Shown: positions 12,801 through 46,936, numbered from the stretch's first letter. The stretch is 64,000 nucleotides of DNA from a virus (IMGVR_UViG_3300045988_165974:1-64000); one strand, 5' to 3'. A program made the numbers and translations. The notes: generated by a model not told the origin, from the letters alone.

Positions 12801-14369
12801 ATTTTTCTTTTGTTCGTCAGGTAATTTATTGAACCATTCAATAAAATCTTTAAGACTCATTCCAGAGAATTCTCCATAATTCTCTTCAATTAATTGCATA
12901 ACAAGTTGTTTTTTATCGTTAGGAAACATATTTATTATTTCTTCAAATAATTTCATGTTTTCTATTCCTTCAACTTTGCCCTCTATAAATAATTTTTTAA
13001 TAGATTTGCTATCGTTTAATGAACTAAATTCAGATAATTGATTCTCAATCGATTTCTTAACTTCCTCTTTATTATTAACTTTTGGGTCAACTGAAACATT
13101 CCATTGAACTCCTTTTCCTTTATTCCAGTCGTTCATTTGTCTTAACATATCTTGTGATAAAACAGTTTCTCCATTAAGTTGTAATCCAACTTTAAGATTT
13201 GCTATTTCGTCATCTGTAAGTTGTCCATTTAAAACTTTTCTTAAAATATCAGAATTTGTAGCATCAAATTCCCCTTCACTAGATACTTTTGTAACTAACG
13301 ATAAAGCGATTTGTAACTCTTGTTCTGAAACATTTTTTCCGTCATCTAAAGTTCCTTTTAATATTGATTGAACTTGTGGAGATAATTTGTCAAATCCCCC
13401 ACCGTCTCTCATATTAATTAAGAAATCTATAGATGCATCTTTATCTCCTTGGAATGAAGCTAAGTCACTTAATAATTGATTATTCGCATCCCATTGTGCT
13501 TTTAATTTAACAGTAAAATCATATGAGGGAGATTCGCTATCTATATAGTCTTGAAGTGAAACTCCATAATTTTTAAGGAATTCGTTTAAAGCTGCTTTAT
13601 CTCCTTCTAAACTACCATTAAATTCGGGAGTTAATCCTATAACCCAGTCTTCTGAACTGATATTAGTTACTTTAGCTAATTCATCTGCAACACCTTTTAT
13701 TGCATTTTTATAAGATTCCAAATCTCCTGTTTGTTGATAGGCACTTTGAGCTTTTCTTATTTTTTCATTCCAGTCATTGATAACATTACCTTGACCTTTC
13801 ATCGCCTCACTAATATCATCAAAAGCATCTATGAATTTATTTTTACCTGTTTCATCTAAAACAGGATTGCTTACCCAGTTAAAATTATTAACTAAGTTTT
13901 GCATACTTGCCTTAGCTTGGTCACTAAGTTTATCATAATTTTGAGAATAAAAACTATCAGAAAGCTTATTTATAACCTCTTGTTGAACTTCTTTATCTAT
14001 CTCTAATAACTCTTTATTTTTATCTGCTAATTCTTTATTGTATTCATCTGCTGCTTTATTTCTTTCAGTTAGGAATTTTATATAGTTATCTAAACCTGTT
14101 TTCATGTCAGTACTTTCACCAAAAGCAGATTTAAGTCCACTTATCGCACTGTTCATTTTGTCCAGTTTTGGAGCAGAATAAGTCCAACCATTTTTGATTT
14201 CATTTGCTCTAGCAGTCCCTGCATTTCCTAATGCATTTTCTTGAGTTTTTGTTAATCTTTCTTGTTCTTTTATTGTTTCTTGTAATTCTTTTTTGTAGTC
14301 TTCTAAACTACCAGTAAGTGCTAAAATGGGGTTCTGATTCTCGTCATACGGTTTCTTCATATAAGTTCG
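9897..14369 (-). CDS. tail tape measure protein, exon 4 of 4 (C-terminal ~1490 aa)
   Basis: Long coiled-coil ORF with three near-identical repeats (TAQASKNVTGL[RK]NN...), a GS-rich linker and repeated YGF[EK]FD[AS] segments. The frame stays open 9 nt upstream of the annotated ATG, up to the intron terminal G. The 5' boundary is uncertain by a few nt. Confidence 0.75.
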   Translation of the reverse strand, partial: RTYMKKPYDENQNPILALTGSLEDYKKELQETIKEQERLTKTQENALGNAGTARANEIKNGWTYSAPKLDKMNSAISGLKSAFGESTDMKTGLDNYIKFLTERNKAADEYNKELADKNKELLEIDKEVQQEVINKLSDSFYSQNYDKLSDQAKASMQNLVNNFNWVSNPVLDETGKNKFIDAFDDISEAMKGQGNVINDWNEKIRKAQSAYQQTGDLESYKNAIKGVADELAKVTNISSEDWVIGLTPEFNGSLEGDKAALNEFLKNYGVSLQDYIDSESPSYDFTVKLKAQWDANNQLLSDLASFQGDKDASIDFLINMRDGGGFDKLSPQVQSILKGTLDDGKNVSEQELQIALSLVTKVSSEGEFDATNSDILRKVLNGQLTDDEIANLKVGLQLNGETVLSQDMLRQMNDWNKGKGVQWNVSVDPKVNNKEEVKKSIENQLSEFSSLNDSKSIKKLFIEGKVEGIENMKLFEEIINMFPNDKKQLVMQLIEENYGEFSGMSLKDFIEWFNKLPDEQKKNYGIDLDKDGNLSISQQKIDSLTKSTEKLGKAAEETSKKDVSVKVNKGELEGSVEDYKELIKYSTKLKDGEYKISFVTDTKDALDNLDTLTKSVNDLSKAFQDMPSKTIRIETAQASKNVTGLRNNVKRYISSVKKSPKTTFRTETAQASKNVTGLKRNISDYVKRYHKTFTTRFNAITALASKNVTGLKNNLADYVSKYAGKTFTTTLKVNRQSSSGSGGSGSSSSGGSAYGPMSMDETTNQTPAVFSTFSNPGISLLSAPTIGDETASGISTYADTLATTSKAISKVSMKSKSTRLDLGEIGVNTTVPTKINTSVKNILDSIEYGVELFQELENRITKVNNKLTLLDTKMERAVGTKKIEYLEKQNALYEEQQKLQSELYDNLYREKEVLRENLKDYGFKFDAQGNLRAYEETMLKMERKAKELEDAAKKASDKASNYETKSSSVDSDKYDTSSKKLTKKQKEKIKQAKKQAKAESETSKKTKKSLEKQADAAQKASDEYSEKLDKVKNLAQEYLDLHNDKIFEASNEWEELNNKIAENNDEIEKLVRENKLYMYKNSITEIDTQLDILGDKYDLLSTKMQHAFGNEKLKLYNQQIDLLKQQQDKQQQLIDNYDKMIKVYKEDLGKYGFEFDSDNNITNQKDALDALQNSEDLEKVTDLMEEFIDIQTGKLPDARKEWEELGNTIKDIYDDKLDITKDIEDEITKIYKDQIEKRKDEIKKQSDAEVEAINKVKEAYENQKKTNSYEEDLKKQQDKIAEINKNIDRYSKDNSLSAKAKVSELLDDLKDEQKSLDDIINNRKDELVSDLFDKQIERIQDESEKAQTKLDEEWTDSKIADMVAQALNTGLFTSINGEVSDLQNTMLEFAESSGDAIGIMADKVKTELVGNLQAAMDIMKEYPDILNGLGLTDYGKGASLNADKLTKVTNKTLNVGDIEIKVTGTGNPTEIATEVKKQIENCFDDLISRV

Positions 14370-15735
14370 CTACACTTATACAGTTCTCTTATGAACTTCC
14401 CTATGTTGCCATAGGAGTCGAGACTATATCTTCATCCTCATATGAGGAGCATACCTTTTCCATTTAAGGGGTTCTCACCCACTCGCTTGAGCCGTACTCC
14501 TATTGCCTATTTCAAGGCTACTCACCAATATAATTGGCTTTCGGATAGTCGTTGAAGTTTATTCTTGTTTATTATAAAATAGTAAATTTTCAGATAATAT
14601 TTTTTCAATATTTTTATAATCCCAATAAGGAATTCTAATTATTTTCCAATTATTTTCTTTAGCATATGTGTTTTTCCTTTTGTCATGTATTTTTAATCTT
14701 TCAAAACATTCTTTGTCTAATCTATTGTCGTAATGAAACTCTCCATCATATTCTATCCAAACTTTTTTATCGGGAATAATAAAATCTGGGCGAAGACGAT
14801 TTCCTCCTACTCCAATTAAGTCTTTAAAATACTCTTTATCATGAATATAATGTATTTTATTTTTATCCAAAAAATTCATTATTCTTTTTTCTCCTTTGGA
14901 TATTTTGCAATAAGGACAATCATCACTTGTTTTTAATTTATTCCAACTTCTTTCAAAAATATGTCCATTAGAACATTTTATTTTAAGTTTTTGATGTGCA
15001 TTGATATATTTTGTTGTTAACAATTGTAAATTTCTTTCTTTTAAAAATTTTTGAACTATAAATATATCAACACTATGTCTTCCGCCAAGACAATAAGGAC
15101 ATTCTATTTTATTTCCTCTTTCTAATAAATTTTTTGTTCTAAAAAACCTATGTCCGTTTTCACATTCAATTTCTAATTTTTCTTTTGCATTTTTATATTC
15201 TTTAGAAATAAGTTTAAACCCGTTTATTTCAACAAAATCTTTTATTTCTTTATATTTTGGTTTTCTGCTAATTGAACATTCTGGACATCTAGTTCCCTTT
15301 AAAGCAACATTTCCTTTGAAATTTTTAAAACAAACATCATAAATGTGTCCGTTTGGACACTTTATTTTAATTCTCGAATTTAATCCTTTTTCTTTTATCA
15401 TTTCAATATATTCATAATTATTATCTTCAACATATTTTCTTATAGTATCTTCATACCGAATCTTTTTCATGATATCACCTCCTATTGATTAATATTATCC
15501 AAAATTTTATTTTTACTTTTTTTATTTATAATAAATTTAGAATCTTACCTGCGTGATTACCTATTGTTACGATTACTTAGGATTTAACCTTATAATCAAT
15601 TTAATATTTTTTTCTGCTTTCGCAACATTCACACTTGCCATTTCTCGCTATGTTGTAGTATATTAAATATTAAGGATTTCCCGCAATTAAATATGTGTAC
15701 AAGGCTGGTTACCCAACCTCTTGGCTATATCACTA
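14370..15735 (-). mobile_element. group-I-like intron (TMP intron 3, family A) carrying a homing endonuclease ORF
   Basis: Interrupts the TMP frame. The 5' exon ends GGT. The intron ends ...GTGTAG. The non-coding flanks 14361-14558 and 15471-15732 are near-repeats of 16480-16626 and 17797-18050. The internal ORF has its own AGGAGG RBS. Confidence 0.65.
14559..15470 (-). CDS. intron-encoded homing endonuclease: tandem zinc-ribbon repeats plus C-terminal PD-(D/E)xK (Vsr/DUF559-like) nuclease
   Basis: Repeated C-x-x-GH...CP-x-C modules. The C-terminus RPDFIIPDKKVWIEYDGEFHY...IIRIPYW is shared with the ORFs at 16627 and 35726. RBS is AGGAGGTGATATC-ATG. Confidence 0.65.
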   Translation of the reverse strand: MKKIRYEDTIRKYVEDNNYEYIEMIKEKGLNSRIKIKCPNGHIYDVCFKNFKGNVALKGTRCPECSISRKPKYKEIKDFVEINGFKLISKEYKNAKEKLEIECENGHRFFRTKNLLERGNKIECPYCLGGRHSVDIFIVQKFLKERNLQLLTTKYINAHQKLKIKCSNGHIFERSWNKLKTSDDCPYCKISKGEKRIMNFLDKNKIHYIHDKEYFKDLIGVGGNRLRPDFIIPDKKVWIEYDGEFHYDNRLDKECFERLKIHDKRKNTYAKENNWKIIRIPYWDYKNIEKILSENLLFYNKQE

Positions 15736-16488
15736 ACCACTAACTAAATCAGGGAACATGTCTGCAACCTGTTGTTTTAAATCATTAAATCTTTCTAATT
15801 CATCGGAACTTAATTTAGTCTTACCTGCTAATTTATCATACTCTTTTGCAATACTACTAAGTGATTTAGCATTTTGTCTCAAACTACTAGTTTCACTTTG
15901 AGTAGTTTCTAATGAGCTTTTTATTTCATCGTGAGTATCTTTAAGTTTGTTTTTAGCCTCTATAAGCTTTTGAATTAACTTACTTAAAGCATACATAGCT
16001 AATCCAATTAAAGCTCCTTGTAAAAGTCCACTTGCAGTTTGTAGAAGTCTTTCTTTTAACATAAATTGTTGAGCTGCTCCACTAACTAAACCGAAAGAAG
16101 CTCTCAATTTATTCATTATTCCGACTTGTCCACTCATTGCTTGTCTTAAAGCACCCATTTTGGTACTTAGTCCAGTATAATAACTTAATTGTCTTGTCTG
16201 AACTCCGCCTACATTTTCAATATTAACACTAGCTCCCCATACTTTACTTAATGACTTAAAAGCAGAAACTACTGCTAATATAGTAGGAACAGTTGAACCC
16301 ATTTTGTTCATCCAATTTACTAAGCTTTGTATTTTTTCAGATATAGCAATTAATACATCTACTCCACTCTTTAGTGATTCTCCACTAAGAATAGTTGTAA
16401 AGACATCTGTCCAAATTGTTTTCAATTCGTTTAATTTACCAGCTAAAGAATTTACATATCTTTCATTCGTTATGTTCATATAGACTCG
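15736..16488 (-). CDS. tail tape measure protein, exon 3 of 4 (hydrophobic core segment)
   Basis: NERYVNSLAGKLNELKTIWTDVF... followed by hydrophobic stretches typical of TMP cores. Bounded by family A intron sequence on both sides. Length 753 nt, phase 0. Boundaries are uncertain by a few nt. Confidence 0.7.
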
Positions 16489-18059
16489 CTACATCTATAC
16501 AGTTCTCTTATGAACTTCCTTATCTTTCAATAAGTGTCCAGACTATTTCTTCACCTTCACCATTATGTGTTAAGGGCATACCTTTTCCATTTAAGGGGTT
16601 CTCACCCACTCGCTTGAGCCGTACTCCTATTGATGTGATTTAACATCCCCTGGGATAGTCGTTGAAGTTTGTTCTTGTTTATTACAATTTAAAAGTTTTT
16701 CTGTTAAGATTTGTTCTATGTTATCATAATTAAAATATGGAATTCTTAATAAATCAATGTTATTTTGTTTACAATAAATATTTTTTATTGTATCTCTAAT
16801 TTTTATTTCAATAAAATCGTCAATTTCATTATAAAAACTATCAATCTCATAATGTTGTTTTCCATCATATTCAATACATAAATTTAAAGAAGGAATATAA
16901 AAATCAAATGGAAGTGGTCTTTTGTATTTACAATCTTTAAACTTATATTGTTCAATATATTCAATATTATTATTATTTAAAAAATTAGAAATGCTTGTCT
17001 CCCCTTTAGATTTATTACAAATCGGACACCTGTTTCCACTATAAAAATGATTTAAATCAGAAGTATAAATATGTCCTTTACCGCACTTAAATTTAATTTT
17101 TGTACTTCCGTTAATATATTCTTCTTTCGGAGTCAATATTTTAAATCCAAATTTCTCAATATATTCTACTCTTTTTTCATAAGGAATTATTTTTTTCTTT
17201 CCTCTATTTAATTCAAAACAATTAGGACATCCACTCCCTGATTTTAAATTATGAATTGTAGGATAAAATATATGATTACATTTTTTACATTTAACTTTAA
17301 TTGGTAAATCATTTGATTTATAATCTTCATCTATCCATTCCAAATTTTTTAACTGTAAAATTTTTAGAATGGATTCTTTATTTAATCTTTGTTTACTTAC
17401 AACTTCTTCTGTTGCACATTTTTTACATTTATGTCCTTTAAATAAATCTAATGGAATTTGATAATATATATGACCTTTGTCGCATTGGATTTTGCATTTA
17501 TCAGAAGCTTTGGTGTATTCGTCTTTTGAAGTCAATAATTTATATCCTAAATTAGCTATTTTATTTTTTACTTCTTCATAAGGCATTATTTGAGCTTTTG
17601 TAAGAATGTTTTTAATACAATTATTACACATGTATTTTTTACTTTTATTCATGACTTTTAAAGTTTTTTCAAATACGTTTCCGCATTTGCATTTTATTTT
17701 TAATGTAGTTGTTGTATTTTTATATTCAGATAATAATTTACATCCATGTTTTTCTAATAAAATTTTAACTTCTTCTTGAGTATATCTTTTCGACATATCA
17801 TTCCTCCTTTCTATATTTTAATTATAACATAAATCTAACCTTTTGTAATAAATTTAGAACTTTACTTGCATGAACTTCCATTGTGATATAATAATTACTT
17901 TAATTATATCTAGGCACTTAGGATTTAACCTTATGCCTATCCTTACTTTGTTTCTACTTTCGTCCCATCATATTGTGATTTCTCCAATATTGTGGTGTAA
18001 GGCTCTTAGGTTGTACCTGCAATTAAATATGTGTCCTATGCACATTTCTGTACATACGG
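16489..18059 (-). mobile_element. group-I-like intron (TMP intron 2, family A) carrying a homing endonuclease ORF
   Basis: Its non-coding parts are homologous to TMP intron 3 (shared ACACATATTTAATTGC, AAGGTTAAATCCTAAG, GGAGTACGGCTCAAGCGAGTGGGTGAGAACCCCTTAAATGGAAAAGGTATGC on the minus strand). It ends ...GATGTAG. The 5' splice site is ambiguous (18059/18060 or 18086/18087). Confidence 0.6.
16627..17796 (-). CDS. intron-encoded homing endonuclease: zinc-ribbon repeats plus PD-(D/E)xK-like nuclease (paralog of 14559..15470)
   Basis: 389 aa. It has five or more Cys-pair modules and the C-terminus RPLPFDFYIPSLNLCIEYDGKQHY...LLRIPYFNY. RBS is AAAGGAGGAATGAT-ATG. Confidence 0.65.
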   Translation of the reverse strand: MSKRYTQEEVKILLEKHGCKLLSEYKNTTTTLKIKCKCGNVFEKTLKVMNKSKKYMCNNCIKNILTKAQIMPYEEVKNKIANLGYKLLTSKDEYTKASDKCKIQCDKGHIYYQIPLDLFKGHKCKKCATEEVVSKQRLNKESILKILQLKNLEWIDEDYKSNDLPIKVKCKKCNHIFYPTIHNLKSGSGCPNCFELNRGKKKIIPYEKRVEYIEKFGFKILTPKEEYINGSTKIKFKCGKGHIYTSDLNHFYSGNRCPICNKSKGETSISNFLNNNNIEYIEQYKFKDCKYKRPLPFDFYIPSLNLCIEYDGKQHYEIDSFYNEIDDFIEIKIRDTIKNIYCKQNNIDLLRIPYFNYDNIEQILTEKLLNCNKQEQTSTTIPGDVKSHQ

Positions 18060-18179
18060 AGAATGTTGTTTCTCTTGTTCGGCAGAACCAAATTGTTCTC
18101 CATTTGCAAATTCTTCTCTTAATTCCATGAATTTATCATAGTTTTGCATTAAGGCTTGAAAGACTGTAGCTTGCTGTTT
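18060..18179 (-). CDS. tail tape measure protein, exon 2 of 4 (micro-exon, ~31-40 aa)
   Basis: Own translation of the minus strand: KQQATVFQALMQNYDKFMELREEFANGEQFG(SAEQEKQHS). It joins ...LSEAIAG from exon 1 to give the TMP-core-like AIAGKQQ..FQALMQNYD. Absent from the ORF track because it has no start or stop. The 3' end may instead be 18087. Confidence 0.6.
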
Positions 18180-19348
18180 CGATTGTTATTAACATGAAGT
18201 TTTTTATCTTCATCTCTGGAGGTTTCCCTCATTTGATAAAATAGCCAATCTTATCTTATCGGTTGGTCAATTCCAACCCAGTCTAGCATATCTTTTGTAC
18301 TCATAACTTAAACCTCTAAGCAACGAGGACTCTTGGAGATATTATATTCTGTATAACAGTTTCAATCTCTATGCGTTGCATGTGTTTAGTCTTTTAAAAC
18401 TATCGAAATATATCACTATATCTCTAGGTTTCCCAACTTCCATTCGGATTAGCAGTTAAGCCTTTCCGTTTTCTTCCTCGTTTCTCTCTCAACTCTTCAG
18501 AGGTAGTTGAGTTGAGTGGGCAAAATTATAATTATTTTATAAGTTTTTATATTTTTTGTATTTTTCATATTTTCGGTCTAAATAAATATTACTATTTGCA
18601 TAAATAAAATCAAGAAAAGATTCTATTTTTTGTTTTTCTCCAACAACAATTCTATATACTTCTTTACTTTTTGTTTTTGCAGAATATATTCTATTTTTAT
18701 CTATATTTGTTATTTTACATATATTTTCCAACATATCTTTAGTTCCAATTATATTAATTTCAAAAGTTTTATTTGTCCAACAAAAACAACCATCCCCATC
18801 GAAATATCCTCTAATAAAATGCCTTTGAAGTTCTTTGGGAACTTTATCCTCGTTTGGAAACATTAAAGTCAAAGATTTTTTGGGAATACACCCTAGATTT
18901 ATTAAAGCTTGATGCATATGTCTATTTTTAAAGCTAATTCGACATTTTATATCATTAATAACTATTTTGCCATCCCAATTTAAAAAATTTTTAAATTTTT
19001 GAATATGAGATTTATCTCTAACAGAAAGACCTATCTCTATATCTGTTCTATTATTGTTTCCAATGCAACCATCTGCATATAAAAAACCTAACCAATATGC
19101 TTTTTCTTCATTATCAATTTTATCGAACACATTTTCTTTTATAGTTTTCTTGTGTGGCAATCTTTTTACTTCAATTCCTTGCTTTTTTAAATATGTTGAA
19201 AATCTTCCTCTTGATATTTTTAAATCTTTAGAAATGCTACATAAAGATTTTCCATTTAGATACATTTCTTTTCCTAATTCATATTTATTATTCATATTTA
19301 TCTCCTATTTTTTATTTTTTAACTTATATTATAATTATAACCATATTT
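18180..19348 (-). mobile_element. group-I-like intron (TMP intron 1, family B) carrying a LAGLIDADG endonuclease ORF
   Basis: The 5' exon ends GCAGGT. The intron ends GTTAATAACAATCG. Its 3' 350 nt (18180-18536) is homologous to 35491-35725 and 38428-38677. Confidence 0.65.
18537..19295 (-). CDS. intron-encoded LAGLIDADG homing endonuclease (two-motif) with N-terminal HTH
   Basis: AYWLGFLYADGCI and FIRGYFDGDGCF are two LAGLIDADG motifs. The N-terminal SISKDLKISRGRFSTYLKK looks HTH-like. Close paralog of 37251..38087 (shared FDKIDNEEKAY.LGF.YADG). Confidence 0.8.
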   Translation of the reverse strand: MNNKYELGKEMYLNGKSLCSISKDLKISRGRFSTYLKKQGIEVKRLPHKKTIKENVFDKIDNEEKAYWLGFLYADGCIGNNNRTDIEIGLSVRDKSHIQKFKNFLNWDGKIVINDIKCRISFKNRHMHQALINLGCIPKKSLTLMFPNEDKVPKELQRHFIRGYFDGDGCFCWTNKTFEINIIGTKDMLENICKITNIDKNRIYSAKTKSKEVYRIVVGEKQKIESFLDFIYANSNIYLDRKYEKYKKYKNL

Positions 19349-22318
19349 ACCTGCTATAGCTTCTGATAAAGCTAATTGTTCGTCTTCCTTTAGGTCGCCC
19401 CATTTTCCTTTTACTTCATCTAGTAATTCAACGAATCCTTTTACTTCTCCCTTTTGTTTGTCAGAATATACATCTATACCTGCAATTTCTCTTAAACCTT
19501 TTGCCGTTTTATTAAGTTCCATTGTCCCTTCTTTGGCATTAGTTTTAAGACCTTGTAAATTTATTGCAATAGATTTCATACCATTACCGACACGGCTACC
19601 ATTTTGTAATGATGTATTGGCAGCAGTAATCATTGCAGTAGCATCTCCTATTTCAACACCATAGTTAGATAAAACTGCACCCCCACCTTGGAAGGCTTGT
19701 ACTAAGCTTTGCATATCTATTGCCTGTGTATTCGATGCATAATTCAATTTATCCATAGCATCGCTAAGTTCAGTAGTAGTTTTAACAGTATCTCCTACTT
19801 GGACTTTATATTCTTTAAGTGGCTCTAAGTTAAATGAGTTTACTATTGTATTTAATCCCTTAGATGCCTCGTCTTGGCTCATATCCCCTACATTTGCTAA
19901 CATCATTGCATTTTTAGCAACCTGCATAGATTTTTCCATAGAACCAATACCTGCTTGTAATGCACTTGCGATACCTTCGATAGTATCTGCCGTACTCATA
20001 CCAACAGATTTACTTATTTCTTCTGCTTTGTCTTGTATTTGTCCTAATTTATCTATAGTGTTTATATCTTTTATGTCTGCAACTTTTTTCATGTCTGTGA
20101 TTGCTGCATCTAAATCAGAATAAACATCTTTAATTTTATATATAGAAGTTGTAAGGGCATTCCCTAAGACATTCCCAAGTGAGAAAGCTCTAATTGAACC
20201 AGAAAAATCAGACCAAAAACGATTACTGACTCTTATTGTTGAATTAGTTCTATTCATTTGGCTTTGGAATCTTCTAAGTTGAGAGTTTGCTTCTGCATAC
20301 ATCGTTTCAAAAGAACCACCAACTTGTCTTGCCTCTGTTTCAACTTGATTTAATTTAGTTATAAATTCATTAACAGTTCCTGTACCAAAAGCCTTTTCGA
20401 TATCTTCTTTAAGTGTATTAAATGTACCTTGAAGAGTATTGAATTTCTTTAACTGTCCAACTATTGTATTAGCCTTACTTCCAACCTCTGCTAAATCCGT
20501 CTTAAATCCATCTAATGAAGTGTCAAATGTTGCATCCATATTTTGAGCTTTAGTTCTAAGTTCATCTAATGCAGTTTGTAATCTATTTACTTCTGCATCT
20601 CCAAATGCCGTTCTAATAGCCTCTTTAAGCCTAATGAAAGCAGTTTCTTGTGTAGTTACCTTTCTTAGACTAGCCTCGATTGTGCTTGCCTTAGCTGCTG
20701 TTGAGTCTATTTCTGCTTTTAGTGATTCAAAAGTACTTCTGAAATCTTCTTTTAAAACAGATGCTGCTGTTCCTAATTGATTTAACCTATTTCTAAGTTC
20801 ATTTGCTTTTACATCTCCAAATGCACTTCTGATTGAATTTTCTAATTTGTCAAATTTGTCTGATAAATTATCTACATCTCTAAGATTTTTTATAGCAGTA
20901 TCTATTTTCTCCAACTGGGACATATCTGCTTTAAAATCCATGTTAAGAGCTTTTCTATTATTTATTTCATCTAATTTAGTTTTTAATTTATCTATTGCTA
21001 CCTGATTAGTTACAGTAACTCTAAGATTTCCTAAATTAGATTTTACTTTAGTTACTTTTTCATCTAATTCAATTAAATTAGAAATACTCTTTTCTAATGT
21101 CGCCTTGTCATTTTTAGAGGATAAATCTATTTTTTGTTTATTGACATCTGCTATTTTCTGTTCAACATTATTTAAATCAGTTATTAAATTCTTTAGTTTT
21201 TCATCTAAAATAGTATATGTTTCAGAAGACATATTAGTGTTTTGCATTTTACTTTTAAGTTTTTCTATTTCAGAATTAAGCATTTTATATTGATTTATAA
21301 GATTTGTTTGTTCAAGGCTATCTGCCTTTTTCATTTGACTTATAAATTCATTTGCTTTAGTTTCTGATTCAGATAATTCACTTTTTAAGGAATTAAAAGC
21401 TACTTCAAAACTTCCATCTAATTCTAATGCAGTTTGAGATAACTGATTTAATTTATTTTCAAGGTCTACTACTGCACTATCTCCTAACCCATCTTTAATA
21501 GATTGTTTTATTTTATCAAAACTTTCTTTTAAGGTTTCAACTTTTCTTAAATTATCTACTTGAGCGCCTAATTCTTTTAACCTATTTAAGTCATTTGAAA
21601 CATCAAGATTTAAATGCCAATCTCCTGTAACCTTACTCTTCAATGTATTTATTTCAGTCATTATAGTAGAAAGTTGACTTGTATTCCCACCGAAAGTAAT
21701 CCCTTTTGTTTTGGACTCAATTTCAGTTATTTTGTCGTCCATTTGTTTCATAGTATTTACTAAAGTTACTATCTCTTGTTGACTTCTTTTAAAATCATAT
21801 AGGGCAATTTTCTTTTTGCTTGTTTCGTCCATTTGTGTAGATAAGGCATCCATGTTTGCTTGAAGTTGTTTAGCTTCTTCGGCTGCTTTTTGAAATAAAT
21901 CTGCACTCATACCTGACTTCATTTTCTTTTGAATGGAATCCAAAGCACTTGCCAATGACTTATACTTAGAAATTAATTCTGTTTGATTTGATGCTACTTT
22001 TTTTGTCCCACTATCTGAATCTAAGTTTTTCATTTTAGATTTAACATTTTCTAATGAATCAGAAATTGTTTTAAGATTTTTAGCAAGACTTTCAAAATCA
22101 CTTATAACACTTTTGTCAAATTTAATTCCGTCTTTCATTTGTTTTTCAAGTTTATCTAACAAATCAGAAACTGTCTTTAGTTTTGTTTCAAAATCTTCAA
22201 CATTAACTTTAAGTTTTAAAGGTTCTTTCTTTGCAGATTCTTGAAGTTTTTCCAACTGCTCTTTTGCAGTTTTGTCATCTAACTCTAATTTAGTGGTTAG
22301 TATAAATTCTTCTGACAT
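19349..22318 (-). CDS. tail tape measure protein, exon 1 of 4 (N-terminal 990 aa)
   Basis: Coiled-coil N-terminus, then the TMP core (...MLANVGDMSQDEASKGLNTIVNSF...LSNYGVEIGDATAMITAANTSLQNGSRVGNGMKSI...QLALSEAIAG). The last 9 codons of the track ORF (KYGYNYNIS*) are intron read-through. Confidence 0.8.
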
Positions 22319-34378: not shown

Positions 34379-35490
34379 CTATGTTAAGAATACAAATGTA
34401 TCATCATCTGTGGTACTATTTGCATTTTCTTCTTCTTCTAGGTAGTCTGCTAAGAAGTTAGCATATCCAAGGCTAGAATATCTATCTTTTCTAGCTCTAC
34501 CTCTTTCTTTTATCTTGATGTATTTACCACCTTCAATACTATGGTCTAAATTTATAAGCTCATTAACTAAAGCTGTTGTTTGTAAAAATGGAGACATATA
34601 TTTAGCCTCTAATTCTGCTCTTAAATTAATATCTGTTATATCTCCTATCTTTTCTTCAAATATCATTTCCTTGGCATCTAAATGATTTAAAGGAAGTTCT
34701 ATTGTCTTATTCATAAGATTTTCTCTTAAACTCATAGCCACTTTATGATTTATTTCAGAATTTGGTTTCAATGAATATACAACAGGAAGGGAATTTCTTG
34801 CAGCAAATTCATCTACTGTATTGTCCTTATTAAAACAAGTAAAACCATCATACCAAACATCTCTTTCGTTATCATAATTGCTTTTTTGTAAATAACTCCA
34901 TACGGTTAACCCTAACCCTTGAGTATCTATTATCATATAATCTGCATCAAAATCATTAAATAATTGTTTTAATCTTATAGCTTGTGTTTCGGCTTCCATC
35001 CCATTATAACTTTCAATATTTACAACTATTCTTCTGAATTTTCCGTCAGAAGGAATTAATCTCATACAAGTATATACTGAGTTGTCATTTACAGAGCCTT
35101 TTGATAAAGCTATATCGGCAGATATTATTCTTATTTCTCCATTTAATTTTCTTAAATATCCTCTTTTATCTTTTTTCTTTTTCTTTTTATCCTCCATGTA
35201 CTCAATTGGAGTGGGAGGATAAAACATACTCTCTTGAGTTCTACAGTTATTGACAAATGAAGATTTAAAGAAAGCATCTTCTGATTCTCCATAGAATAAT
35301 CCACAATATTCCATAGCAAAACTTGCTTCTGTCATACTTTCTTTTTTCATTTCTCTTATTATTTTTTTCTTAGTTAATAATCCGTGGTCTAAACTACAAG
35401 TAAAAGGAATTGAACACATAAATGCATCTTCTCCTCTTACCATTGCATTTAAAACTTCCATACATTTAGCATAGCTCCAATGTCCTTTAT
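34379..35490 (-). CDS. terL: terminase large subunit, exon 4 of 4 (nuclease domain)
   Basis: Frame is open from 35490 (..Y)KGHWSYAKCMEVLNAMVRGED...ISADIALS...IIDTQGLG... Joins exon 3 in phase 1 (tgg t|at aaa). Confidence 0.8.
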
Positions 35491-36730
35491 CATATTGTTA
35501 TTAACCAATGGCTTTTTATCCATTGCTCTGGAGATTTCTCTCATTTGAAATTATCTTATCGGTTGGTCAATTCCAACCCAGATTGGCGTACATTTTTATT
35601 CTCTAATATTTATATGGCGAATATCGAATACTCTTGTTGATATTATATTCTGTGGAGGATGGCTATTCCCCAAACAGGTTCAATCAATACGCTCTACGAT
35701 ACTAATAACTCTTTAATTTTATTAGTTATCTCGGTATTTTCTTTTCTAATATTGAATTTATTTCTTTAACTTGTGAGTAATTAATCCTTATTAAATTAAT
35801 GTCATTCTTCTTACAAAAATTATTTTTTATGACATCATGCTTTTGTCTAATTTTAAATTTTTCTTTTCCTCCATAAAAATCGGTCGGTCTATAATGTTGT
35901 TCTCCATCAAATTCGATTGCAATATTAAAGTCATTTAAATAAAAATCAAAAGGGAGTGGACGAATATCTTTACAATACTTAAATTTATATTCTTTTTCAT
36001 ATTGTATATTATTCTTATCCAACCGTTCTGAAATTTTTATAACTCCAACACTTTCTTTTGATTGACAATTTGGACACTTTATTGTTTTCCCATTAAAATT
36101 TGAAAAAGCTCTAGTAAAAACACATCCACAATCTTCGTGTTTTAATGTTACTTTTCTTTGTGTATTAATTTCAATAATTTTAAATCCTTGATTATTTTTA
36201 TTTAAAACATTTTGCATATCTTCTATTGTTAATGTTTTATTTTTGCTTTCACATCTAGGACATATTACTTTTCTGTTTAAAAATCCTTTTAAATTTCTCT
36301 TAAAAACAAAATTACATTTCTTATGTTTTAAAGTTAAATAAGATTTATGAATACCATTGTATTCTAAATTAATTAATTCATAATCTTCTCCTATTTTTGA
36401 ATAAATATCTTCTAAAACTTTTTCAATAGGCTTGAACATTTTTGAGTTTGCATTTTCCTTAGAACAATCATTACATTGTATTTTATCTTGATTTTTAATG
36501 TTATAAAAATTTCTCTCAAAAATCTTTCCACATTTACATCTTAAAATTAATTTTTCAGAACCATTTTTATATTCTTTTGATAGCAACTCACAATCGGAAT
36601 TTTCTTCAATATAAGATTTTACTTGTTCATATGTAAATTTACTCATATTAACTCCTTTAAAGATTTTTACCGATATTACTCGATTACGGCTATAAGCACC
36701 CATATTTTACTTATAGCTAGGCAAAAGTTT
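35491..36730 (-). mobile_element. group-I-like intron (terL intron 3, family B 3' module) with a zinc-ribbon/PD-(D/E)xK endonuclease ORF
   Basis: The 5' exon ends GGATGGT. The intron ends GTTAATAACAATATG. 35491-35725 is homologous to 18180-18536 and 38428-38677. Confidence 0.65.
35726..36646 (-). CDS. intron-encoded homing endonuclease: zinc-ribbon repeats plus PD-(D/E)xK-like nuclease
   Basis: Start trimmed to the ATG after AAAGGAG (MSKFTYEQVKSYIEEN...). The C-terminus RPLPFDFYLNDFNIAIEFDGEQHY...LIRINY is paralogous to 14559 and 16627. Confidence 0.65.
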   Translation of the reverse strand: MSKFTYEQVKSYIEENSDCELLSKEYKNGSEKLILRCKCGKIFERNFYNIKNQDKIQCNDCSKENANSKMFKPIEKVLEDIYSKIGEDYELINLEYNGIHKSYLTLKHKKCNFVFKRNLKGFLNRKVICPRCESKNKTLTIEDMQNVLNKNNQGFKIIEINTQRKVTLKHEDCGCVFTRAFSNFNGKTIKCPNCQSKESVGVIKISERLDKNNIQYEKEYKFKYCKDIRPLPFDFYLNDFNIAIEFDGEQHYRPTDFYGGKEKFKIRQKHDVIKNNFCKKNDINLIRINYSQVKEINSILEKKIPR

Positions 36731-36923
36731 ACCATCCAGAACTTAAATATATCTCTTTGTTCTCTTCGATATATTTCTTCTTTAACATTGGATTATTTGC
36801 ATATTGAGGAAGACTTAAAAAACCTGGTTGTCTTGGATTTGTTAAGAAAGGTAATAAAACATCATCTAATATTTTTTGGTCTACCATTCTATATTCATCT
36901 ACAATCAAAATGTTGGCACGTTC
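36731..36923 (-). CDS. terL: terminase large subunit, exon 3 of 4 (Walker B segment)
   Basis: [35 protein letters not shown]... contains the Walker B LIVDE. 193 nt. Confidence 0.8.
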
Positions 36924-38166
36924 CAATTTGTTATCCCATAAGCTCTTTATCTTATGGTTCTCATAAATTTCTTTATAAGTTCAGAGTACATTATCACTCT
37001 CATTTCATCTTAGCTCTCAATGAGTGTCGGAGGCTCTTGGAAGGATTATTGCTTTCATTTTGTCGCTCACCCTCTACTCGTTACGGACAATATTAGATAT
37101 TATTGCCCTCGGTATTACCACTACCCATTTTAGGGGTTAGGCTTTCTTACCAGTCTATCCCTCCTATTTCTAGGTTATATTTTTATGTACTTTCGACTAT
37201 GACCGATACACCCCGATTACGGCAATATGCACTTGAGAGTTTACATATTGCTAGGCTATTTGTAATATTTTGTTTGCTTTTATGTATTTTCTATCAAGAT
37301 AAATGGTTGCATTATCATACAATAAATGTACCAATTTCTTACATTCATTCTGTCGAGAAAAAGACAATTTATAACATGTATTGCTTAAATAAATTATTGA
37401 ATGTAATTCAAAATCTTTCTCCATTTTTTCTTTAATAAATTCAAAAATAGCTAAATTATTCCCTGCTATTGAGATATTAGGATATGATTTGTTTTTATTT
37501 TTCTTAAAACAATATGTACCATCTCCATCAATATACCCTCTTAGAAAATGTAAAAACAAAGTATTGTCTTCTATTCTTGGAAACACCTCTGAATAACTTT
37601 TATTTTGAACTATATTTTTATCTAATAAATCTAAATAAATTGATTTACTGTATACTCTAATAATGCAATTTACGCATTGTTTATTTCTAATTTTTTGGCC
37701 ATTTAAACGGTCAAGGGAATTATAATTACTAATTTTAGAATTAACTTTATAATAGTTATTAAAGTTTTTATTAAATTTATGTAAATGATTTATATCTTTA
37801 TAACTTAATTCTATTCCTAATTCATAGGTTCTATTTGAATGACTAATATATCCATCTGCATAAATAAATCCCAACCGATATGCTTTTTCTTCATTGTCAA
37901 TTTTATCAAAAAAACGTTGATTTCCTTTATCTTTATCAGAAATACTTTGTCTTAATTCTAGCTTGCCTTTTTGATAATCTATTGATTTTTCACTTCTTCC
38001 GATTAGTTTAGATAATTCTTTATTAGTATATTTTTTATAATTTTCTTTTAAAAATAAAATTTCTTCATCTTTCCGTTTTTTACTCACTTCGATTTCCTCC
38101 TAATTTTTTAAATTAGAAGGAATAAAGGCTTATACTCCTTTAAATTCCTAAGCAAACTTGAAAATA
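36924..38166 (-). mobile_element. group-I-like intron (terL intron 2) with a LAGLIDADG endonuclease ORF
   Basis: The 5' exon ends AGAGGT. A candidate internal guide GCCUU lies 45 nt downstream. The intron ends GGGATAACAAATTG. It shares GTGTCGGAGGCTC with terL intron 1. Confidence 0.65.
37251..38087 (-). CDS. intron-encoded LAGLIDADG homing endonuclease (GTG start)
   Basis: AYRLGFIYADGYI and FLRGYIDGDGTY motifs. RBS is TTAGGAGGAAATCGAA-GTG. Paralog of 18537..19295. Confidence 0.8.
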   Translation of the reverse strand: MSKKRKDEEILFLKENYKKYTNKELSKLIGRSEKSIDYQKGKLELRQSISDKDKGNQRFFDKIDNEEKAYRLGFIYADGYISHSNRTYELGIELSYKDINHLHKFNKNFNNYYKVNSKISNYNSLDRLNGQKIRNKQCVNCIIRVYSKSIYLDLLDKNIVQNKSYSEVFPRIEDNTLFLHFLRGYIDGDGTYCFKKNKNKSYPNISIAGNNLAIFEFIKEKMEKDFELHSIIYLSNTCYKLSFSRQNECKKLVHLLYDNATIYLDRKYIKANKILQIA

Positions 38167-38427
38167 ACCTCTGGCATCTTGATTAGCTACAATAGCTTCT
38201 ATTCTACTTCCATTCCAAAATGTAATAGAAACCTCTTTACTATTAATCTGAATATCTTTAATTTCTTTTTGTAGAGCCTCGGATGTTTTATATAACTCTC
38301 CAATTATCTTATCTGTAATTATCTTTTGAGCTTGTTTCTTTCTCTTAGCTGCGACGATTATCTTTGTTCCTGGTTTTAAAGTGCAAATTAAAACTGAAAA
38401 AACTGAAATTAGCCACGTTTTGCCAAG
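38167..38427 (-). CDS. terL: terminase large subunit, exon 2 of 4 (second half of the P-loop)
   Basis: Own translation: LGKTWLISVFSVLICTLKPGTKIIVAAKRKKQAQKII...IVANQDARG. 261 nt, phase 0. Absent from the ORF track. Confidence 0.75.
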
Positions 38428-39738
38428 CGATTGTTATTAACTGTAAGTTTTTTACCTTACACTCTGGAGGTTTCCCTCATTTGAAGTTATCTAATCGGTA
38501 TGTTAATTCATACCCAGTCTAGCATACACCTTCACCCTCGTTTAACGTTAGGAGATTAGATTTTACTCTATATCTAATAATTCTTTAAATTATTGTGTCG
38601 GAGGCTCGTGTTAGTATTATATTCTGCATAACAGTTTCAACTATAATGCGTTACGAATTCTAAATCCTTTTAAAGACTTAGTTCATCTCGGTATTAGCAT
38701 ATTTATTAATATAGAATCGAACAGTAGTATCACTAACATTCAATTCTTTTGATATTTCATCTATTGTATTATTCTTTTTAAAATACATGTCAATAATTTT
38801 ATTTTTTATTTTTGAAGTAATCTTTTGATTATAATTATAAGGATTAGAAACACCTCTAAGATAACCATTTACAGTACTACTAGGCAATTTTACAATATTT
38901 ATAATTTCACATTCTCTTAGTCCTTGTTCTTTTAATCTCATAACTTCATCATATTTTTTTAATCTTTCTTCATATGCTATTTGTTTTGTATTTCTATTTT
39001 CATATACAACCTTTTCTACAACACTTGAAGTATATCCTTCTGATGAAACTATTTCACAAATTCTCATACCACTATCATACAATTTTAAAATTTTTTCATT
39101 TCTTTCTTGTATAAGCTTCTTTTTCATTTTGTACATTAGTGGGTTTAATTCAGGATTTATATATTTAAAAATATTTCCTCTCGCAATTTTATCAATTTGA
39201 GATTTTGAGGTATTAAAAATTTTAGCAATTTCTTTTCTATCCATTAAGTTATATATTAAAAGTTTAATTCTTCTTATATCAGATTCAGATAGTTTGGAAT
39301 GTTTCATTCTTTTAGTATTACTTAACTTGATTCTACTTTCTATTGACATAGTTCCACCACCTTCTCCTCCTTCGGTAAGATTATACCCAAAATTTGGATT
39401 AGCAGTATTGAATTTATCAATATAAAACATTTCTTTATCATTTAATTCTTCTTTAGTTGTCTCTTCTAGTAATTCAAAAATAAAACTTTCTTTTCCATAT
39501 TTATCAAAAGCATTTTGTAAATGACAATTATAATGTTTACCTCTTCTTAACAGACCTTTATGTGCTAATATTCTGTCTTTAACATGAATTGATTGACCTA
39601 TGTATTTTTTATTATCTTTTATATTTGTTATACAATAAATTCCTACCATATTCCCTCCGATTACATTAATAAATTTAGCCTCCACCGATTCCCCCCGATT
39701 TATTACCCTTATATTTCTATAAGGGAGGGCATTGGTCT
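38428..39738 (-). mobile_element. group-I-like intron (terL intron 1, family B 3' module) with a GIY-YIG endonuclease ORF
   Basis: The 5' exon ends AGGGGT. A candidate internal guide GCCCU lies 8 nt downstream. The intron ends GTTAATAACAATCG. It splits the Walker A motif. Confidence 0.7.
38678..39649 (-). CDS. intron-encoded GIY-YIG homing endonuclease with repeated C-terminal HTH modules
   Basis: Start trimmed to the ATG after GGAGGG (MVGIYCITNIKDNKKYIGQSIHVKDRILAH...NLTEGGEGG). Three or more HTH-like repeats follow (RKEIAKIFNTSKSQI, ICEIVSSEGYTSSVV, IDEISKELNVSDTTV). Confidence 0.8.
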   Translation of the reverse strand: MVGIYCITNIKDNKKYIGQSIHVKDRILAHKGLLRRGKHYNCHLQNAFDKYGKESFIFELLEETTKEELNDKEMFYIDKFNTANPNFGYNLTEGGEGGGTMSIESRIKLSNTKRMKHSKLSESDIRRIKLLIYNLMDRKEIAKIFNTSKSQIDKIARGNIFKYINPELNPLMYKMKKKLIQERNEKILKLYDSGMRICEIVSSEGYTSSVVEKVVYENRNTKQIAYEERLKKYDEVMRLKEQGLRECEIINIVKLPSSTVNGYLRGVSNPYNYNQKITSKIKNKIIDMYFKKNNTIDEISKELNVSDTTVRFYINKYANTEMN

Positions 39739-39951
39739 ACCCCTAGTACAGGACATTAAAAATTGGTCGCTTTTAAACATAAAGTATATTAATATCTGTT
39801 GGAATATATGAAGTGGAAATTCAAAATAATCCAAAGCGAATCTATGAGGGTTAGCTAAATAAAATCCACCCCAATATTCACCTATTCCTTCTAATAGATT
39901 TTCAGACGAATCATTAGATGTCAATTCTCTATCTTCATATTTAGTCCTCAT
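39739..39951 (-). CDS. terL: terminase large subunit, exon 1 of 4
   Basis: MRTKYEDREL...FEFPLHIFQQILIYFMFKSDQFLMSCTRG. The trailing RPMPSLIEI* of the track ORF is intron read-through. The start overlaps the upstream gene by 11 nt. Confidence 0.75.
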
Positions 39952-42193: not shown

Positions 42194-42330
42194 TGGAAAC
42201 AGTTGGATTTGAACCAACACCCTCTTCTTGACCTATAAGATTTAATTTCTTCTTTTAAATATATTGCTGTATGTGTCCCATAATCCCACTAGACACATAA
42301 TTATTTGTGCTACCATTACACCATGTTTCC
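42194..42330 (-). ncRNA. tRNA-like gene with ~75-nt insert in the anticodon/variable region (box copy 7 inside)
   Basis: Acceptor GGAAACA/TGTTTCC, D arm GTGT-AATGGTA-GCAC, T arm GTTGG-TTCAAAT-CCAAC. Between the D and T arms are 90 nt including the hairpin ATGTGTC-(14)-GACACAT + ACAGCAAT. No CCA is encoded. Confidence 0.55.
42261..42279 (-). repeat. island box, copy 7
   Basis: The minus strand reads GGGACACATACAGCAATAT. Confidence 0.6.
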
Positions 42331-44851: not shown

Positions 44852-46114
44852 TTAAATTGCTACTGTCTGTACCATTTGTGATGTTCTTGCAGTGACTCGC
44901 TTACAGTTACTTAACTTTGGCGTTTTAAAACCTCTTGGCATTGCTGAAAAAACAATCTTATTCCCATCAATGTCCATAAGAATTGCATATCCTGTAAACA
45001 TTCTTCCCTTAATAAAGTATTCCTTGCCAAAGTATTTTACTTTGTCATATTTTCTAAAACCGTATATTTTACCAGTTGTAATAGGCTGTTCTGAACGAAC
45101 ACCTTTTGTTTTTCGAAAATCACCATCAGAAACACATTTCTTTTTGTAAAGATTACTCCTTACATAAAAAGCATTCCCTTGTGTTGATATAGTACAAGCA
45201 TCATAATAATGTTTTTTGTCTATCCCTAAATGTAAACGATTAGTCTTTGTCACATATCCAAAAGTTTCAATAGCATTTGGATAGAATCTGAAAAGCTGCT
45301 TACGGATAGAATTCATTTGCGTAGCATATTTAAGATTACCCTTAACTTTACCGCTTAATTTAGGGTTAATCTTCTCACTATGTAAATCTTTATGACAGGT
45401 GTGACATAAAGTAATTAAATTACTTTCTTCGTCAGAACCACCTTGACTACGAAATACAATATGATGAACTTCTAATTTGCTATCCTTATGCTTGCCTTTA
45501 CAATATTGACAAGTATAGTTATCTCTATTAAGTACCATTGCTTTTGTATTTTCAAATCCATAGTTAACACCTTTCTGATACCCCCAATGTCTAACCTTGG
45601 AATTTGCAAGTATTGGATTTTTCATTAAATGCATATCAAACTTCCCTGTTTCAAATACTAAAGTTGTAATTGGTAAAATAGATTTAATATATTCTATTTC
45701 CTTTACATGACTATGAAGTTTGCTCTGCATTGTAGGACTAAATCTATCCTTTCTAATAGAATTTGCACGATTTAACCATCTTGCTTTTCTATAACGAGTT
45801 TTACGATTTCGTCTGTTTCTACGATACTTTGCTCTTTGTGTCATTTTGTTAGTAATGTCGTTTCTTACAACAATTTCCGACATATAAACAATATTTCCTT
45901 TTTCATCTGATACTGCTGTTCCTATTGTTCCACTACCTGTATCTACACCTAAAATTAAATCTTGAGTGTAGTTTGTACTGTCATACAATAGTTTAATTGT
46001 AAACGGACAACGACTAACAACTTTAGCTTTTCTATCTTTTAACAGATGTCTGATTTTCCCATACCTATTCGTAGGCATAAGTGGTTGTCCATCTTTGTTT
46101 AATACATATACCAT
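44852..46114 (-). CDS. iscB: IscB (OMEGA-family RNA-guided RuvC/HNH nuclease)
   Basis: PLMP domain (KDGQPLMPT). RuvC-I ILGVDTGSGTIG. Arg-rich bridge helix RAKYRRNRRNRKTRYRKARW. HNH CQYCKG...LEVHHIV...NLITLCHTCHKDLH. RuvC-III KHYYDAC. 420 aa. Confidence 0.9.
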   Translation of the reverse strand: MVYVLNKDGQPLMPTNRYGKIRHLLKDRKAKVVSRCPFTIKLLYDSTNYTQDLILGVDTGSGTIGTAVSDEKGNIVYMSEIVVRNDITNKMTQRAKYRRNRRNRKTRYRKARWLNRANSIRKDRFSPTMQSKLHSHVKEIEYIKSILPITTLVFETGKFDMHLMKNPILANSKVRHWGYQKGVNYGFENTKAMVLNRDNYTCQYCKGKHKDSKLEVHHIVFRSQGGSDEESNLITLCHTCHKDLHSEKINPKLSGKVKGNLKYATQMNSIRKQLFRFYPNAIETFGYVTKTNRLHLGIDKKHYYDACTISTQGNAFYVRSNLYKKKCVSDGDFRKTKGVRSEQPITTGKIYGFRKYDKVKYFGKEYFIKGRMFTGYAILMDIDGNKIVFSAMPRGFKTPKLSNCKRVTARTSQMVQTVAI

Positions 46115-46117
46115 AAA

Positions 46118-46435
46118 CAGATATTCCTTTCATTAAATTAAATTAATAACTCAGCTACACAAGTAACTGTTATGCGTACTATACTGTACTGTTACCATAC
46201 AGTTGTTTCGACTTCAACTCGACAATGATATAAAGGCTTTTTACATATACATTACAAGGCTGTTCTTACTCTGACCTAACTTAAATGTATACGATAGAGC
46301 AATGGTCTGTTGCGTCAACCAAAGGTATCATGACTTAAATATCGTAGCCATCATTTCTGTGGCTTAGTCTGGTGAACCATTTAACAGAAGCCCATAAGCT
46401 TTAGCTTGTGGGTAGTTCACTTAATTATTCCTGGA
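46118..46435 (-). ncRNA. candidate IscB omega RNA (structured 5' leader of iscB)
   Basis: 320 nt ORF-free region directly upstream of iscB. It has nested stems, e.g. GTGAAC...GTTCAC enclosing CCCACAAGCT-AA-AGCTTATGGG. Upstream is a possible promoter, TTGAAA-N16-TAATTA. IscB loci are known to encode their guide RNA here. Confidence 0.6.
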
Positions 46436-46818: not shown

Positions 46819-46936
46819 TGCCGAAGAATAGATTTGAACTATTATCCTATAGCTTCCCTGTTTGAAATTGCTGCTTATGTATTTATCAATACATCTATTT
46901 ATTGGCTATTGCTCCAACCATTTGAGCTACTTCGGC
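46819..46936 (-). ncRNA. tRNA-like gene with perfect cloverleaf stems but a 51-nt anticodon loop (box copy 2 inside)
   Basis: GCCGAAG-TA-GCTC-AAATGGTTG-GAGC-A-ATAGC-[51 nt, 46854-46904]-GCTAT-AGGAT-AATAG-TTCAAAT-CTATT-CTTCGGC-A. The loop contains the hairpin ATGTATT-GAT-AAATACAT + AAGCAGCAAT. Confidence 0.6.
46865..46884 (-). repeat. island box, copy 2
   Basis: The minus strand reads AAATACATAAGCAGCAATTT. Confidence 0.55.

Follow-up and report, generated by a model that had tools for sequence, protein, structure and literature searches.

The large-terminase gene of a phiCD211/SPbeta-like phage is very probably interrupted by three paralogous mobile group I introns

Group I introns are already known in phage large-terminase (terL) genes, and phage genes with three such introns have been described. 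In Bastillevirinae Bacillus phages such as SIOphi, phiAGATE and BCP8-2, terL contains as many as three group I introns, and nucleases of phrog_559 were found only in terL introns; exon skipping was seen in SIOphi terL and in Twort orf142 (PMC11878797, NAR 2025). The orf142 gene of Staphylococcus phage Twort (AF132670) is a tail tube gene. A single group I intron was reportedly found by Mikkonen and Alatossava in 1995 in the large-terminase gene of Lactobacillus phage LL-H, a different phage group from the one studied here. We analysed a 64,000-nucleotide (nt) stretch of viral DNA, IMGVR_UViG_3300045988_165974:1-64000 (the window), in which terL occupies positions 34379 to 39951. From its sequence, we conclude with high confidence that three mobile group I introns, which are paralogues with an IA-like core, interrupt the terL gene of this phiCD211/SPbeta-like phage, and the gene is a further case of a known arrangement. 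An earlier note on this DNA had called three introns in one terminase gene a very high load. The load is high, but it is not unprecedented, since up to three introns occur in terL of Bastillevirinae (PMC11878797) and a close relative of the window, L008, has four.

The window terL resembles the Bastillevirinae genes in containing as many as three group I introns, in having nuclease open reading frames (ORFs) in ribozyme loops, as many of the Bastillevirinae introns do, and in encoding a phrog_559 nuclease. It differs from them in belonging to a Clostridium-associated phage with a phiCD211/SPbeta-like, siphovirus-type TerL, and in carrying three different nuclease families. Furthermore, its insertion sites map to Walker A, to a position before Walker B and to an SSGW|Y motif, and its ribozyme cores belong to a lineage missed by RF00028, the standard Rfam group I covariance model. 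Like Twort orf142, it is a late phage gene with three related group I introns, a similar J6/7, a similar P7 frame, UGAAC after P7 and a potential for exon skipping. Unlike the window introns, those of Twort are self-splicing, short, ORF-less and RF00028-positive, and their host gene is not terL. What goes beyond the routine in the present case is the occurrence of three nuclease families in one gene and of five insertion sites in ~455 nt in varied combinations, as well as the recurrence of one ribozyme type at several sites with differing cargo, together with the wide distribution of a ribozyme lineage that RF00028 missed in every locus tested.

The exons and introns of terL all lie on the minus strand, as do the intron-encoded ORFs. 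Exon 1 (39739-39951, 213 nt) encodes amino acids 1-71, and its last residues are TRG and its last bases GGU. Exon 2 (38167-38427, 261 nt, amino acids 72-158) starts with LGKTWLIS, lacks its own start codon and ends with DARG. Exon 3 (36731-36923, 193 nt) encodes amino acids 159-222 plus 1 nt and holds Walker B (ILIVDE), and exon 4 (34379-35490, 1112 nt) encodes amino acids 223-592 and the stop codon, comprising the remaining ATPase domain and the nuclease domain. The exon arithmetic proposed in the earlier note closed, with the joined exons giving 1779 nt, or 592 codons plus a stop, and zero internal stops. The joined translation also gave the junction peptides that had been claimed (...MSCTRG|LGKTWLIS, ...DARG|ERAN and ...LSSGW|YKGHWSY), with the P-loop RGLGKT rebuilt. 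Intron 1 (38428-39738, 1311 nt) lies between the RG and LGKT codons of this P-loop, and its placement inside the Walker A codons was therefore correctly predicted. Intron 2 (36924-38166, 1243 nt) lies between the DARG of exon 2 and exon 3, just before Walker B, and intron 3 (35491-36730, 1240 nt) is a phase 1 intron inside the Tyr codon of SSGW|YKGHW. The terL intron insertion sites lie in invariant ATPase codons.

The conceptual TerL was compared with intact terminases of GenBank phages by tblastn. It aligned in one piece (amino acids 1-589, 65.5% identity) with the intron-less terminases of the C. difficile phages phiCD211, phiCDIF1296T and AR1086-1, and it was 39% identical to YonF of SPbeta (yonF). 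A three-way MAFFT alignment was free of indels at every junction (RG|LGKT, DARG|ERAN and SSGW|YKGHW), so the colinear alignment across the three junctions that the earlier note had predicted was obtained. Judged by these alignments, the colinearity with intron-less homologues is far beyond chance. A megablast search of the terL locus against GenBank phages gave zero matches. Among the best 120 of 413 TerL homologues with E <= 1e-20, most were full-length proteins of ~575-600 amino acids. Terminase_6N (33.1 bits) and TerL_ATPase (28.9 bits) of Pfam scored above their cutoffs and spanned junctions 1 and 2, Terminase_6C scored just under its cutoff (20.1 bits), and phrog_2 terminase was matched with an E-value of 7e-27. 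In addition, the product has the expected composition of a TerL, with an N-terminal ATPase in which both Walker motifs (A and B) are present and an RNase H-like nuclease at the C-terminus, and the portal gene (phrog_2739) is directly downstream.

We considered whether terL is truly a split gene, in which free-standing nuclease cassettes have broken terL into pieces whose separate translation products assemble, as happens with some T4-like split genes. Gene callers give separate ORFs, and separate PHROGs families match the N-terminal (phrog_15503) and C-terminal (phrog_26582) parts, as such an arrangement would have it. Exon 2, however, has neither a start codon nor a ribosome-binding site, and its first codon falls inside the P-loop; the join of exons 3 and 4 lies within a codon, the RNA between the exons shows a ribozyme fold that is conserved and covaries, and intron-less alleles join the pieces exactly. 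We regard a split gene as highly improbable.

These alleles were found in close relatives of the window. L006, a metagenome contig from ENA that is 97-100% identical to the window, has intron 1 and exon 2. Its exons 2, 3 and 4 are contiguous, and the window segments 38166-36924 and 36730-35491 are missing to the base; therefore, introns 2 and 3 are absent exactly at the predicted junctions. L008 (IMG/VR UViG_3300008482_000121, terL region at L008 5495-9620) is 97-99% identical to the window flanks, and L013 (the metagenome-assembled genome CAJLBR010000001.1, labelled uncultured Clostridium sp.) is 99.8% identical to L008. Both are uninterrupted across site 1, the insertion site of intron 1, and have a LAGLIDADG intron 6 nt downstream of it, after RGLG (site 1'). 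Introns 2 and 3 of the window are present at the same sites as ORF-less versions, and an additional ORF-less intron 20 nt upstream of site 3 leaves a 20-nt micro-exon between this site (2b) and site 3. Removal of the four introns (1287, 340, 346 and 374 nt) gives a 1779-nt ORF encoding a 592-amino-acid TerL. The spliced L008 terL differs from that of the window by 8 amino acids and 73 nt, and four synonymous changes are grouped at positions 213-222 of the coding sequence, around sites 1 and 1'. More distant relatives have ORF-less introns at site 1 and site 2b (L009, 59% identity), a GIY-YIG intron at site 1 (L010, 50% identity) and a LAGLIDADG intron at site 1' (L007, 82% identity). The terL ATPase domain has five insertion sites within ~455 nt, and their combinations differ among genomes that are 97-99% identical. 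This presence/absence polymorphism among the compared sequences supports intron mobility. At the DNA level, the pattern is that of precise excision, in that the junctions of natural intron-less alleles are those predicted and the product runs colinear with its homologues.

Other differences were recorded at these loci. Outside terL, L008 carries 1.4 kb of inserted sequence (L008 3055-4501) when compared with window 40988/40943. L011 (~5860-5870) and L012 (~1225-1235), two independent intron-less Logan contigs whose TerL is 51-53% identical to that of the window, have one extra A in the P-loop codons (...GGA CTC A GGC AAA TC..., RGL +1 GKS). Their terL requires a +1 frame change precisely where the introns of relatives insert. 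The extra A could reflect programmed frameshifting or slippage, a scar of nuclease repair or a pseudogene.

The 5' exons of all three window introns end in GGU and all three introns end in G, as had been read directly from the sequence; the terminal G was also present in 14 of 14 related introns. Minimum-free-energy folds (RNAfold) contained a P1 with a U·G pair in each intron, namely GGGGUA/UGCCCU in intron 1, AGAGGU/GCCUUU in intron 2 and GGUAA/UUGCC in intron 3. The guides suggested beforehand for intron 1 (GCCCU) and intron 2 (GCCUU) pair with the exon ends, including the U·G, in these folds. The three introns are paralogues, with common 3' ends (..UAACAA..G), the same J6/7 (GUAAC) and further shared blocks. 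The order of the helices, checked by coordinates, is P1, P2, P3-J3/4-P4-P5-P4'-P6-J6/7-P7, a compound P7.1, P3'-P8-J8/7-P7', P9, P9.1, P9.2 and the terminal G, and P3 and P7 cross in all three introns, which is the group I pseudoknot.

In intron 1, the P1 guide is at 39731-39726, followed by P2 (39725-39706), P3 (39697-39692/38604-38599) and P4 (39688-39684/38692-38688). P5 (39674-39665/38710-38701) closes the ORF loop, and P6 (38681-38660), P7 (38649-38645/38526-38522), P7.1 (38644-38611), P8 (38597-38533), P9 (38514-38497), P9.1 (38478-38467), P9.2 (38461-38442) and the terminal G (38428) complete the fold. The corresponding elements of intron 2 are the P1 guide (38129-38124), P2 (38122-38094), P2.1 (37251-37222), P3 (37215-37210/37033-37028), P4 (37206-37202/37113-37109), a long P5 extension (37201-37114), P6 (37108-37085), P7 (37079-37075/36988-36984), P7.1 (37074-37040), P8 (37026-36995), P9 (36979-36960), P9.2 (36956-36937) and the terminal G (36924). 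Intron 3 has its P1 guide at 36724-36720, P2 at 36717-36689, P3 at 36682-36677/35630-35625, P4 at 36673-36669/35735-35731 and P5 at 36663-36659/35744-35740, with P6 (35726-35701), P7 (35692-35688/35590-35586), P7.1 (35687-35637), P8 (35623-35597), P9 (35578-35561), P9.1 (35542-35531), P9.2 (35525-35506) and the terminal G (35491) downstream. The part of the BCP8-2 terL intron that matches the P5 extension of intron 2 is 78% identical to it (E=2e-9).

The fold was evaluated by covariation. Whole ORF-deleted introns were misaligned by MAFFT in their 5' parts, and 'mini' introns deleted for P5 were used for this reason. The alignment comprised seven introns, namely introns 1-3 and a fourth intron of the window, two introns of L007 and one of phiCD211. 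Without aid, MAFFT placed the P3, P7 and P7.1 strands in common columns for all seven. Across P3, P4, P7, P7.1 and P8, 93.7% of the cells were paired, as against 35-56% when the partner strand was slid, and 14 of the 25 pairs changed on both sides; the observed values were reached by none of 500 shuffles. In a set of 14 introns extracted by anchoring on their flanks, pairing was 96% in P3 (compensatory columns 6/6), 100% in P7, 88% in P8 and 98.6% in P7.1 (compensatory columns 5/5). P2, P9, P9.1 and P9.2 covaried as well. A pattern scan of IMG/VR gave at least 119 loci, at least 99 of which matched the intron-family profile (nhmmer, E<1e-5). When ~90 of these relatives were aligned by sequence only, through the nhmmer columns, P7 was 100% paired in 88 sequences, with one column alternating between A-U and G-C at 47:38, P7.1 was 100% paired in 90 sequences (58.6% when shuffled), and P3 was 98.9% paired in 15 sequences. 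A search of the distant IMG/VR relatives for the best upstream P3 candidate was uninformative, the control being as high as the observed value. Finally, the P10 guide changes with the 3' exon, from CCAA/UUGG in window intron 1 to GAAAU/AUUUC in the homologous intron of L010.

Several results weigh against the group I assignment. The check with a curated group I covariance model, which the earlier note had proposed, failed, as RF00028 gave zero matches on introns 1-3 when the whole window was scanned at the gathering score, when the locus was scanned at E<=10, and when two short core windows were scanned. At the gathering score, it also missed the family members in all 13 IMG/VR loci scanned, and yet it scored the three Twort orf142 introns at 64-101 bits. 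The nhmmer family profile did not match the Twort introns significantly (E ~1), and P1 of intron 3 has three exon base pairs only. In control scans, however, RF00028 missed the annotated Intron_gpI of phiCD211 and the BCP8-2 terL intron, and we therefore read its negative result as low sensitivity and not as evidence against group I. The incompleteness of this model for phage introns has been discussed (PMC11878797). The P1-P10 fold with its P3/P7 pseudoknot, the covariation, the intron-less alleles and the similarity to BCP8-2 support the assignment of introns 1-3 to group I.

Other classes of intervening element, such as group II introns or inteins, fit poorly, and the presence of nuclease ORFs is all that would speak for them. 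An intein reading was rejected, as the insertions have stop codons in the exon frame. A group II reading was also rejected: a reverse transcriptase or maturase, group II boundary motifs and an Rfam group II match are all absent, and the topology is that of group I. We give such elements a negligible probability.

The failure of RF00028 on introns 1-3 would also be compatible with insertions that derive from group I introns and have lost splicing, leaving terL as a dead gene in a prophage that is defective or in a genome that is decaying. Moreover, the +1 frameshift of L011 and L012 in the same P-loop codons indicates that damaged-looking terL alleles do occur in assemblies. Decay is nevertheless difficult to reconcile with core helices that are intact in all three introns, with pairing kept by compensatory changes. 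The exons have no stop or frameshift and purifying selection is evident from the 8 amino acid and 73 nt differences to L008; the three nuclease ORFs are intact, and so are the neighbouring portal and other structural genes. We therefore consider a dead terL very unlikely. Introns 1-3 are, on the combined evidence, very probably functional mobile group I introns.

By analogy with described systems, we infer splicing, catalysis, nuclease specificity and homing. After transcription, each intron would fold into P1, formed by the end of the upstream exon and the internal guide with a U·G at the cleavage site, and a P3-P9 core with the P3/P7 pseudoknot. A free guanosine bound in P7 would attack after the terminal U of the exon; the last G of the intron itself would then dock and the exons would be ligated, in a two-step transesterification. 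The expected product is a 1779-nt mRNA translated into a normal 592-amino-acid TerL in which both Walker A (RGLGKT) and Walker B (ILIVDE) are restored. The intron nucleases would be translated and, during co-infection by relatives whose terL lacks the intron, would presumably cleave that terL close to the insertion site; repair by gene conversion would copy the intron into the cut allele. Exon skipping, as in Twort orf142 and SIOphi terL, is conceivable because each of the three upstream exons ends in GGU and the guides resemble one another; skipping of exon 2 would keep the reading frame.

The introns may be genuine group I introns and still not be autonomous, with excision needing a protein cofactor, either a host factor or a LAGLIDADG maturase activity. 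I-AniI-type LAGLIDADG proteins can act as maturases, and P1 of intron 3 is short. Furthermore, several introns in Bastillevirinae terL, pol and ribonucleoside diphosphate (rNDP) reductase genes were spliced in vivo but not in vitro (PMC11878797). On the other side, the cores carry the full helix set, and an encoded protein is not generally required, because ORF-less introns are present at the same sites in L008 and L009. A need for a cofactor is rather unlikely in our view.

The earlier note had ascribed a GIY-YIG, a LAGLIDADG and a zinc-ribbon/PD-(D/E)xK nuclease to the three introns, and evidence from Pfam, TIGR01453, PDB, PHROG and Foldseek bore this out, with the Vsr-like assignment of the third being putative. 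All three ORFs are intact. The homing endonuclease (HE) of intron 1, HE1 (38678-39649), is a protein of 323 amino acids from the ATG at 39649, with C-terminal helix-turn-helix (HTH) repeats. It matched PF01541 (GIY-YIG; 33 bits, cutoff 22.6), HTH_7 and TIGR01453 ('group I intron endonuclease'; 71.7 bits, cutoff 56.05), as well as the I-TevI catalytic domain (1MK0/1LN0, E=1e-5), and it starts with MVGIYCITN...YIGQS. By these curated models, HE1 is an I-TevI-like GIY-YIG homing endonuclease. The ORFs of HE1 and HE3 are in the P5 loop and their final codons overlap P4' (and, in HE1, also P6). The arrangement in intron 1 recalls td/I-TevI of T4, where a peripheral loop of an IA-type phage group I intron likewise contains the ORF of a GIY-YIG endonuclease; the N-terminal domain of HE1 matches the catalytic domain of I-TevI. 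The T4 td intron ORF sits in the P6 loop, whereas the HE1 ORF is in L5. In addition, HE1 has several HTH repeats and not the zinc-finger/minor-groove/HTH module of I-TevI, and the host gene is different.

HE2 (37251-38087, 278 amino acids, GTG start) has the double motif LGFIYADGY and LRGYIDGDGT. It matched PF14528 (LAGLIDADG_3; 30.1 bits, cutoff 22.5) and phrog_4645, and its nearest solved relatives are I-HjeMI (3UVF, E=9e-5) and I-AniI. By the curated Pfam model, HE2 is a LAGLIDADG homing endonuclease. Its ORF lies between P2 and P2.1, and its Shine-Dalgarno sequence (AGGAGG) is buried in the 12-bp P2 stem.

HE3 (35726-36646, 306 amino acids) has three zinc-ribbon repeats and a putative C-terminal Vsr-like nuclease domain of the PD-(D/E)xK superfamily. 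It matched phrog_559 (E=1.5e-63) and phrog_9084, and DUF2726 weakly, below the cutoff. Its homologues are labelled very-short-patch-repair endonuclease or DUF2726, and its invariant residues are D234, E245, D247, H251, D271 and K274. The AlphaFold2 model had a predicted local distance difference test (pLDDT) score of 92, and Foldseek matched it to E. coli Vsr (1vsr) with a probability of 1.0 and a template modelling (TM) score of 0.57, but with E=0.07, and also to RAP-like mitoribosomal proteins. Sequence and profile searches of the PDB with HE3 gave no nuclease and only zinc-ribbon noise, with no match to 3R3P. phrog_559 has been placed in the VSR superfamily (PMC11878797), and a Vsr-like homing enzyme of the EDxHD family, I-Bth0305I, is encoded in a recA group I intron of Bacillus phage 0305phi8-36 (PMC3239194). 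Like I-Bth0305I, HE3 is intron-encoded, and its putative C-terminal catalytic domain would likewise be Vsr-like and of the PD-(D/E)xK superfamily. Unlike that enzyme, which has NUMOD/HTH modules, it has CxxC zinc-ribbon repeats in the N-terminal region, and the two do not match at the sequence level (3R3P). Based on phrog_559, the homologue labels, the invariant residues and the AlphaFold2/Foldseek match, HE3 putatively works like the Vsr-like homing enzymes typified by I-Bth0305I, of whose family in the strict sense it is a candidate member.

The same intron family was observed elsewhere in the window and in related phages. The tail tape-measure gene at window 9897-22318 (minus strand) appears to be split like terL, with exons at 19319-22318, ~17797-18179, 15733-16479 and 9897-14360. 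Between them lie a LAGLIDADG ORF (18537-19295) and two phrog_559 Vsr-like ORFs (16627-17796 and 14559-15470) on the same strand, and the core at 18180-18545 is of the same family as the terL introns. With a tape-measure gene split in this manner, the window would hold at least six introns. In phiCD211, an unannotated, ORF-less family intron of 273 nt (LN681537.2 28595-28867; L005 2304-2576) lies just upstream of the tape-measure gene, ~23 nt from the annotated Intron_gpI (locus 2600-2865), which suggests two tandem introns with a very short exon between them. L016 (IMG/VR UViG_2740892352_000003) has three tandem group I introns at 1672-2675, two Rfam-missed family introns flanking one Twort-like intron (RF00028, 103.7 bits). 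In the related phage L007, an ORF-less family intron of 368 nt (12547-12914), located between two small structural ORFs, has a long P5 extension, as intron 2 of the window does.

Other elements were noted on the minus strand of the window. A HEARO/omega RNA at 46207-46420 (RF02033, 103.9 bits) is directly upstream of a 420-amino-acid ORF (44852-46114) that has a RuvC-like motif and an HNH motif and is flanked by tRNA genes; the pair therefore constitutes an IscB-type OMEGA nuclease system inside the phage. Rfam tRNA matches were found at 46819-46936, with a 50-nt insertion in the anticodon loop, and at 42194-42330, with a long insertion and a total span of 137 nt. ARAGORN called neither of these two, and they could be intron-containing or disrupted tRNA genes.

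These findings leave the current concepts of group I intron mobility unchanged. In practice, this phage group will defeat automatic annotation, phylogeny based on terL and the prediction of packaging type as long as its introns are not modelled, because exon 2 is outside every called ORF and terL shows up as fragments between 'endonuclease' genes; the standard Rfam model does not flag the terL introns. We tentatively propose, as a possibility that falls somewhat short of probable, that the introns form a large lineage within the phage group I introns that has so far escaped cataloguing and is marked by an IA-like core and one compound P7.1, and that this lineage actively re-targets and swaps nuclease cargo in phiCD211/SPbeta-like phages. 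The lineage was present in at least 99 IMG/VR contigs, and the same core type, which in the window occupies the pre-Walker-B site, is located in L007 and L008 at site 1' in Walker A. If this is true, the terL ATPase domain would be a place where co-infecting phages compete by means of introns and nucleases. The alleles form a natural series, from L006 without introns 2 and 3, through the window with three introns, to L008 and L013 with four and a 20-nt micro-exon, and the same scaffold is seen with and without nuclease ORFs and with different nucleases. This series is well suited to studies of the invasion of pre-existing introns by homing endonucleases and of the movement of introns to new positions within invariant ATPase motifs, and also to asking whether exon skipping results from the presence of several introns whose GGU exon ends are similar.

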